The notes under the pieces were generated by a model. It worked only from the letters and a program-made list of their open reading frames with translations, had not been told where the DNA came from and did no database searches. Source: Gammaproteobacteria bacterium (GTDB lineage: Bacteria; Pseudomonadota; Gammaproteobacteria; JBIOEC01). Taken from it: DNA of 64,000 nt. Location of the stretch: positions 1,157,994-1,221,993 of the forward strand of contig OZ257143.1 in the NCBI GenBank assembly GCA_965279305.1, written 5' to 3'. Within the stretch, counting starts at the first letter, position 1. Every line of letters begins with the position of its first letter. This document shows, piece after piece, positions 43,330-43,461 of the stretch. The position numbers were made by a program, and so were the translations under genes.

Positions 43330-43461
43330 TTTTCTAGGGGGATTGCCCTCTGGTGAGTATTGAATTCAAAGACGCCGTGAATACTTCCCTGTAGGCTCAG
43401 CCTCGGCATCCTGCCTCGGATGCTTTGAATTCAATACTCACCAGAGAGCAATCCTAGAAAA
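43330..43461. repeat. REP/MITE-like palindromic element, copy 3 (upstream of proA)
   Basis: Arms of about 40 bp (ttttctagggggattgccctctggtgagtattgaattcaaag / ctttgaattcaatactcaccagagagcaatcctagaaaa) flank the core acgccgtgaatacttccctgtaggctcagcctcggcatcctgcctcggatg. Confidence 0.85.

Follow-up and report, generated by a model that had tools for sequence, protein, structure and literature searches.

We analysed a stretch of 64,000 nucleotides (nt) from an uncultured gammaproteobacterium (GenBank assembly GCA_965279305.1, contig OZ257143.1, positions 1,157,994 to 1,221,993 of the forward strand), referred to below as the window. It carries three copies of a hairpin-forming repeat, in which a constant core of 51-52 nt is enclosed by long inverted arms that differ from copy to copy. 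Copy 1 is flanked by two minus-strand genes, a 207-amino-acid open reading frame (ORF) whose stop is at 1433 and a PP-loop (TtcA-like) gene that starts at 1202; 17 nt separate the end of the element from the ATG of the latter. Copy 2 is located at the junction of murE and murF, both on the plus strand. Copy 3 also separates two minus-strand genes, a 434-amino-acid ORF with its stop at 43493 and proA with its start at 43301. One strand of the element forms hairpins with GGA in their loops. This GGA strand is sense to the neighbouring genes at copies 1 and 3, and antisense at copy 2. The original prediction, made from the letters of the window alone, had placed all copies in intergenic positions next to gene ends or starts. 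This is correct for copies 1 and 3, while the left arm of copy 2 includes the last 11 nt of murE with its stop codon (7451-7453).

The predicted arrangement of core and inverted arms is real at all three sites, and the sequences were re-read as stated. The core pattern GTGAATACNTCCNTGTARGCTC gives 3 matches in the window at 0 mismatches, with 0 expected from shuffles. The arms are by far the longest local inverted repeats within the 64 kb. They were described as self-complementary within a copy and unrelated between copies, and both statements hold: complementarity is 90-97% over 30-32 nt, and the similarity between copies is not significant (p = 0.05, 0.5 and 1.0). The fold z-scores range from -8.7 to -12.5 relative to dinucleotide shuffles. 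Copy 3 folds to -71 kcal/mol on the minus strand and to -65.4 kcal/mol on the plus strand. A covariance model built from non-Yersinia copies in other genomes (R1) finds exactly three copies in the window and places all of them on the minus strand. The features are the following.

1220..1330, minus strand: copy 1, whole element, R1 score 87.2 bits
1220-1249 paired with 1301-1330, no strand: arms of copy 1, 30 nt, 90% complementary, from the inverted-repeat search
1252..1274, minus strand: hairpin B of copy 1, GCU-UAC-[AUGGAA]-GUA-UUCAC-AGC
1275..1300, minus strand: hairpin A of copy 1, identical in sequence to hairpin A of copy 3
7443..7554, minus strand: copy 2, whole element, R1 score 113.7 bits
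7443-7472 paired with 7525-7554, no strand: arms of copy 2, 30 nt, 97% complementary
7475..7497, minus strand: hairpin B of copy 2, GCC-UAC-[AAGGAU]-GUA-UUCAC-GGC
7499..7524, minus strand: hairpin A of copy 2, CGUACGCGGC-[AGGGAU]-GCCGCGUCCG
43340..43454, minus strand: copy 3, whole hairpin element, R1 score 95.6 bits
43340-43371 paired with 43423-43454, no strand: arms of copy 3, 32 nt, 97% complementary
43374..43396, minus strand: conserved hairpin B of copy 3, GCC-UAC-[AGGGAA]-GUA-UUCAC-GGC, with a hexaloop of the CsrA-consensus type
43397..43422, minus strand: hairpin A of copy 3, CCGAGGC-A-GGA-U-GCCGAGG, with tandem G.A pairs; the stem varies across the family

The closing pair of hairpin B has covaried in copy 1, from C-G to U-A. 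Pairing outside the arms of the window copies is not significant (z = 0.04, -0.15 and -1.6), so no elements reaching beyond the 30-32-nt arms are claimed in the window. At gathering thresholds, Rfam reports only RNase P RNA in the window. Weak Rfam matches to microRNA precursors were rejected, since they reflect the long stem only. A reading as a small ORF was also rejected because the arms are too variable for a conserved frame.

The window copies belong to a widespread family. A scan of one genome per species with the pattern GTGAATACNTCCNTGTARGC lists at least 120 loci for the core, and all matches listed are from Gammaproteobacteria. Among them are the genera Stenotrophomonas, Lysobacter, Thermomonas, Marinobacter, Microbulbifer, Methylotuvimicrobium and Sedimenticola, as well as a Legionellales metagenome-assembled genome (MAG) and Enterobacterales. 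Complete genomes of E. coli contain no copy, and the hairpin-A sequence common to copies 1 and 3 retrieved no copy from the lineage of the window in two metagenome scans. The layout is the same in nearly every copy. On the strand on which the core was originally read (the UCC strand), it consists of an arm, ACGCC-GTGAATAC.TCC.TGTAGGCTC, a variable-stem hairpin with the loop (C)ATCC(N)TG, ACG and the second arm. The arms are 50-54 nt apart in about 70 of the 112 complete copies, with a median arm length of 24 nt and a maximum of 33 nt. The elements sit in operons and 3' regions in either orientation. According to rough ORF calls, 22 copies have a convergent and 28 a co-directional gene context, and divergent contexts are rare (6 copies). 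The density in the window is three copies per 64 kb.

The centre of the family connects it to a described repeat of Yersinia, RU-2, which De Gregorio et al. (2006) reportedly named YPAL; Delihas (2007) is also said to treat YPAL/RU-2. The published Y. pestis RU-2 (168 nt) holds the core ...gagcctacatggatgtatttacggcgt... (PMC2759123), and the homology of the window copies to YPAL is restricted to the central ~52 nt. The Rfam family RF02770, 'Ysr224' (Yersinia sRNA 224, a small RNA), matches copy 3 in a permissive scan with 26.7 bits (E = 2e-4), below its gathering score of 70. The same family scores 133.9 bits against two Yersinia plasmid copies, L127 and L128, for which R1 gives 72 bits. Both are full ~168-nt elements, mutually identical including their arms, at different sites. 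YPAL is present in 60 intergenic copies in Y. pestis (PMC2759123), has internal inverted repeats and is co-transcribed with upstream genes (PMC2229807). Its target duplications measure 3-26 bp, and its targets are located at or next to sequences of dyad symmetry (PMC2229807). Ysr224 is also multi-copy in Y. ruckeri (PMC12112432).

The window copies resemble YPAL in having both GGA/UCC-loop hairpins, the UUCAC bulge and GGCGU. YPAL and the family as a whole share a long palindromic fold, many copies in mostly intergenic positions by gene ends, inverted repeats that are internal and not terminal, and target duplications of variable length. There are also clear differences. The window copies measure 111-115 nt and YPAL 167-168 nt, and the arms and ends in the window are similar neither to those of YPAL nor to one another. 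None of the three window sites has a readable target duplication; at copy 3 a closely related strain (L121) differs on one side, which blocks the reconstruction. The host of YPAL is an enterobacterium (Yersinia), whereas the host of the window is an uncultured gammaproteobacterium with ~40% G+C and a contig of 1.87 Mb.

Target duplications are visible elsewhere in the family. Direct repeats of 8-10 nt occur on each side, 19-31 nt outside the perfect arms, in 9 of 57 copies (99th percentile of the null, 8). In one of these nine, L071, the repeat belongs to REP-like flanking repeats (repetitive extragenic palindromic, REP), which leaves eight loci. The non-Yersinia copies with candidate duplications are 152-169 nt long, i.e. 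of YPAL length. The duplications at L127 and L128 measure 12 bp and 19 bp, the latter being a terminator hairpin, and the range observed here is 8-19 bp. The termini of the family are not conserved, while the centre is.

The site of L128 (L128:1644-1927, Yersinia similis plasmid) has a YPAL copy inside a terminator hairpin just before the ryfA RNA gene (Rfam, 179.5 bits). Neighbouring elements are frequent in the family, with pairs in L002, L008, L015, L033, L046, L065, L084, L086, L091, L104 and L120 and six copies in 8.5 kb in L054; inverted pairs 50-300 nt apart are common. This arrangement fits the report that YPAL prefers dyad-symmetric targets.

Two explanations of the copy-specific arms had been offered: either insertion produces an inverted copy of the flanking target DNA, or there is selection for a long stem, with co-evolving arms. 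The second is supported by covariation and by an orthologous copy. In an alignment of 32 copies, all 30 arm pairs have changed on both sides, the covariation score is 0.80 compared with 0.20 in shuffles, and 89% of the arm cells are paired, compared with ~40% when the partner is slid. As the members of this alignment were chosen for complementary arms, the arm count describes the pattern and is not a test of it. No such choice was made for hairpin A, 8 of whose 10 pairs covary.

The orthologue is found in L125, a relative with 66% MurE identity, which has an element at the murE-murF junction in the same place and orientation as copy 2 (~3441-3528; the R1 match spans 3430-3536). The two cores are roughly 80% identical by hand count. 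The arms have diverged and are still complementary (window, ggtatgtgtttaggcaag; L125, ggtacgctccctccaag). In L126, a relative with 60% identity, the murE-murF junction is empty and measures 10 nt. Across seven pairs of related copies, both orthologues and paralogues, we counted 23 compensated double, 35 single and 5 uncompensated double changes. Paralogues whose 52-nt cores are identical, including the freely covarying hairpin A, can differ in their arms by 30-45%, with full compensation. This implies either that the arms evolve more rapidly than the other parts, or that a genome homogenises its cores. The arms of resident copies change fast yet stay complementary by changing on both sides, and copies that have not been recently amplified therefore seem to have arms of their own.

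The 52-nt core and the centre of YPAL are homologous. The repeats are diverged members of a known family of miniature inverted-repeat transposable elements (MITEs). We estimate a probability of about 70% that the window repeats are old resident, non-autonomous palindromic MITEs of the YPAL/RU-2 superfamily, with drifting but paired stems. On this reading, the puzzle of a constant core with private arms is resolved in an ordinary way, by the age of copies of a known palindromic MITE type. YPAL/RU-2 is the only described member of the superfamily. That YPAL/Ysr224 is not specific to Yersinia, and constitutes one branch of a gammaproteobacterial superfamily defined by its centre and not by its ends, goes beyond what we found in print. 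So do the twofold match of its centre to the CsrA/RsmA hairpin and a folding strand that is independent of local transcription.

The GGA strand of the core forms a three-way junction, composed of a long basal stem, the variable hairpin A (up to 10 bp) and the conserved hairpin B, which has the form GCC-UAC-loop-GUA-UUCAC-GGC. The mismatches in the arms indicate which strand folds. Read on the UCC strand, they are A.C (62), C.T (19), C.C (7), G.T (6) and A.G (4); on the GGA strand the two most frequent classes become 62 G.U and 19 G.A. The more stable fold is that of the GGA strand in 52 of 61 copies, with a mean difference of 4.6 kcal/mol (p = 9e-9), and this holds for the arms alone as well as for the core alone. 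The fold is favoured on one strand, the reverse complement of the core as originally read (for all three window copies, the minus strand), whatever the direction of local transcription.

Both hairpins are capped by a hexaloop, C[A-N-G-G-A-N]G, in which the outer C-G is the closing pair of the stem. Hairpin A lies outside the search pattern, and its loop reads C 89%, A 89%, N, G 99%, G 99%, A 96%, N, G 89% in 131 copies. Hairpin B was scored in 30 model-found copies that do not match the pattern, where its loop C-A-N-G-G-A-N-G is 97-100% conserved. The stem of hairpin B covaries between UAC/GUA, CCC/GGG, CAC/GUG and CUC/GAG. The RsmE consensus is A/UCANGGANGU/A, and the two free loop positions of the element correspond to its two N. 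The CsrA consensus obtained by SELEX is RUACARGGAUGU, with invariant ACA and GGA; the GGA is usually found in a six-base loop, with AC paired to GU (PMC7652899). This consensus string is in wide use across the literature. The commonest hairpin B, CUACAGGGAUGU, matches 11 of its 12 positions. Each element has two GGA motifs 23 nt apart, and the distance between two sites that a single CsrA dimer can bridge is 10-63 nt (PMC7652899). On these grounds, the tip of the element can be tentatively predicted to be a double CsrA/RsmA site, a prediction from sequence to which we give somewhat less than even odds. No csrA gene lies within the 64-kb window, which has no bearing on the remaining genome.

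If the GGA strand is transcribed, as it would be at copy 1, which precedes the ttcA-like gene, and at copy 3, which precedes proA, its two loops could bind one CsrA/RsmA dimer. The element would then tie the neighbouring transcripts to Csr control, soak up CsrA, or both. The 30-bp stem could act as a nuclease barrier or as an RNase III site in either orientation. A broader and rather doubtful proposal, again drawn from the letters, is that a ready-made CsrA/RsmA module with two high-affinity sites has been distributed through the Gammaproteobacteria by a mobile element, in which case GGA-sense copies would impose Csr control on neighbouring genes and form a dispersed CsrA sponge.

Several observations weigh against a role in Csr control. 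The literature searched contains no link of YPAL or Ysr224 to CsrA, nor of CsrA to REP or MITE elements, and nothing relevant on the core sequence. The conserved part of the core beyond the loops (UUCAC, GGCGU and GAGCC) exceeds what CsrA binding needs. There is no conserved promoter or terminator with the element and no conserved flank. No preference for the GGA-sense orientation can be observed: co-directional copies are UCC-sense in 17 cases and GGA-sense in 11, and many copies are convergent. The proteins flanking UCC-sense copies include GyrA, flagellin, Rpe, DinB and bacterioferritin, which we take to be products of real genes. Rfam annotates the Ysr224 RNA on the UCC strand. Finally, the G.U bias is present in every context, including UCC-sense copies (18 to 1), so that selection on a sense mRNA cannot be its whole cause. 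Its possible sources are the GGA strand as an antisense RNA, the GGA strand as single-stranded DNA, or inheritance from mobile source copies that depended on the fold. A link of orientation to the direction of replication, as read from local GC skew, is weak (39 compared with 28 loci); in the window, the UCC strand of all three copies is on the G-rich strand.

An array of the element was observed in a Saccharophagus MAG (L018:3104-3753). It consists of four tandem units of ~180 nt, each with one element on the same strand and a conserved spacer, so that the 1.2-kb space between two convergent genes contains eight hairpins with a GGA loop. Searches of this array for a GacA box, a promoter, a terminator and a Csr/Rsm family of Rfam were all negative.

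The absence of an orientation preference and the independence of the wobble bias from neighbouring transcription could also be explained at the level of DNA. The core would then be a signal in a GGA strand folded as single-stranded DNA and read by a mobilising enzyme, in the manner of HUH transposases or integron integrases, and its likeness to CsrA sites would be coincidental. The element is mobile and makes target duplications (see also PMC2229807), its centre is conserved while its termini are not, and the bias fits source copies that fold on one strand to move. We nevertheless consider this explanation unlikely. Resident copies keep their core and pairing for a long time at one locus, as at murE-murF across 66% MurE identity, and selection for mobility cannot maintain a resident copy individually. 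No associated transposase is known, although no search for one was made here. The position-wise agreement of the two loops with the CsrA consensus, down to its two free positions, would be a remarkable coincidence.

The pairing of the arms could also be kept perfect mechanically, by intramolecular template switching at replication (quasipalindrome correction), which would transfer every new mutation to the partner arm, with no function of the element for the host. Many arms are 100% complementary over 28-32 nt despite strong divergence between copies. In addition, close copies with identical cores differ by the same change in both arms, including an adjacent AG-to-GA change. Such a correction is blind to the type of mismatch, however, and cannot give a 10:1 G.U bias on one strand. 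It leaves the conservation of the 52-nt core across bacterial orders unexplained, and in the related pairs the single, uncompensated differences outnumber the compensated ones. It is improbable as the explanation of the family.

The other mechanism originally proposed, in which a conserved core inserts by hairpin formation or template switching and copies the target flank in inverted orientation, would create the arms anew at each insertion. The arms in the window are not detectably related, and paralogues with identical cores have strongly diverged arms, as expected from such a process. At copy 3, moreover, a stretch of 14-16 nt just beyond the far arm (TAGAAAACACCTTC) repeats the proA-side flank GAAGGAATTTTTCTA in inverted form, and L121, which lacks the element, has this flank too. 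The match is only marginally significant, and it could equally mean that L121 has lost most of the element.

The sharing of arms between copies argues strongly against this mechanism. While the arms are indeed private among the three copies of the window, they are not in the family as a whole. The two Yersinia copies have their arms in common at different sites. Six copies in Microbulbifer epialgicus have common arms and short outer ends in unrelated flanks, and L090 and L106 are near-identical elements with the same arms, again in unrelated flanks. Arms that are common to copies in unrelated flanks must travel with the element. The arms of the family also share a composition and a partial consensus: the 5' arm is G-rich on either strand (518 G compared with 302 C), 70% of the copies have G at position 3 from the core, and T prevails at positions 8-9. 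In Sedimenticola and in Thermomonas, arms from one genome are visibly related. The original prediction had contrasted the repeat with ordinary MITEs, which share their terminal repeats; wherever it was recently amplified, the family is an ordinary MITE.

It had also been suggested that the arm sequence be compared with the flanking DNA at an empty site. L121, a strain with 96% identical ProA, lacks copy 3, and its contig contains nothing resembling the arms. The shared sequence resumes within 2-3 nt of the outer arm end on the proA side. Only this boundary of copy 3 is exact, because the 3' end of the 434-amino-acid gene has diverged in L121. The orthologue in L125 represents change in place and not creation at insertion, and the complementarity outside the arms of the window copies is not significant. 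Together, these observations show that the element brings its own arms and does not build them from the target, and copying of the target flank is very improbable.

A reading of the elements as GTAG-class REP/REPIN sequences mobilised by a REP-associated tyrosine transposase (RAYT), with the GTAG in ...CTGTAGGCTC... and hairpin A as the REP, draws on the GTAG located 4 nt ahead of the palindrome in two of the three window copies and on REP-like GTAG palindromes beside some Sedimenticola copies, but can be dismissed, as the GTAG is one half of the hairpin B stem and is lost in many copies, where this stem covaries to CCC/GGG, CAC/GUG or CUC/GAG, copy 1 has GTAA, the motif is on the worse-folding strand, the stems are not conserved within a genome and the palindromes differ between copies.

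As members of the YPAL/RU-2 superfamily, the repeats can be compared with other known systems. The CsrB, RsmY and RsmZ RNAs likewise present GGA in short hairpin loops (consensus CANGGANG), and the two sites of the element, 23 nt apart, can be bridged by a dimer. These RNAs are genes with their own promoter and terminator, whereas the element is dispersed, mobile, carried on a 30-bp stem and found in both orientations. It matches no Csr/Rsm family of Rfam, and no GacA/UvrY box was detected (the box was searched for in one array). Correia/NEMIS and ERIC/IRU elements are also small, non-coding palindromic insertions that are co-transcribed with their neighbours. They have conserved terminal inverted repeats and TA target duplications, while the YPAL-type element has variable ends and a conserved centre. 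The long RNA hairpins of NEMIS and ERIC reportedly alter mRNA stability, through RNase III in the case of NEMIS and RNase E in that of ERIC (PMC2229807).

Integron attC sites are recombination elements with a conserved structure and a mostly variable stem sequence, which work as a single folded strand. Their conserved boxes are located at the base of the stem and their tip is variable; in the element the base is variable and the tip conserved. An attC identity was rejected on account of this conserved tip and the lack of an integrase or cassette context, the neighbours being housekeeping genes (murE/murF, proA and the ttcA-like gene).

If CsrA binding is true, a mobile element would be linked to one of the main post-transcriptional regulators of these bacteria. 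Ysr224 is among the most frequent small-RNA matches in bacterial genome scans (PMC9029176), and CsrA binding would explain this high frequency. If, in addition, the module has spread as proposed, arrays such as the four tandem units of L018 could be raw material for sponge RNAs of the CsrB/Rsm type. The module might also supply CsrA antagonists in Xanthomonadales and in many uncultured groups, for which we know of no described Csr/Rsm small RNA.

Some copies depart from the common layout. In composite copies (L109:6035-6195 and L111:1458-1615; also L017, L022, L052, L067, L079, L097 and L114), ~50 nt are inserted in or after hairpin A, with extra small hairpins that have ATCCNTG or CANGGAT loops and are sometimes in the opposite orientation. 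These small hairpins may be repeats in their own right. The copies of Methylotuvimicrobium sp. KM1 (L009, L028, L031 and L034) lack the ACGCC side of the junction and have another left flank in common (...ctatggaatttaggtgctgg). They seem to be a composite repeat that is specific to the lineage and uses half of the core.

The surroundings of copy 3 vary between relatives. The 434-amino-acid ORF (window 43493-44797, minus strand), located between ruvA and proA, has no Pfam domain and a proline/threonine-rich tail, and its 3' end is strongly different between the window and the 96%-related strain L121. In two relatives (L122 and L124) ruvA and proA are directly adjacent, without this ORF between them. 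The ruvA-proA spacer of L122, a relative with 71% ProA identity, contains two nested long palindromes (L122:1500-1670) with outer arms of ~31 nt, inner arms of ~25 nt and no similarity to the core.

Further repeats are present in the window. Just upstream of copy 1, the 207-amino-acid ORF, which has no Pfam match, contains a perfect 36-nt tandem duplication (1490-1561). A tandem duplication of ~1.7 kb (45546-47208 and 47281-48934) is 70-91% identical along its length. The class A RNase P RNA (27746-28116, 311 bits) is followed, within 28201-28240, by a perfect 16-nt hairpin (TGCAAAAGGGGGGAGA / TCTCCCCCCTTTTGCA).

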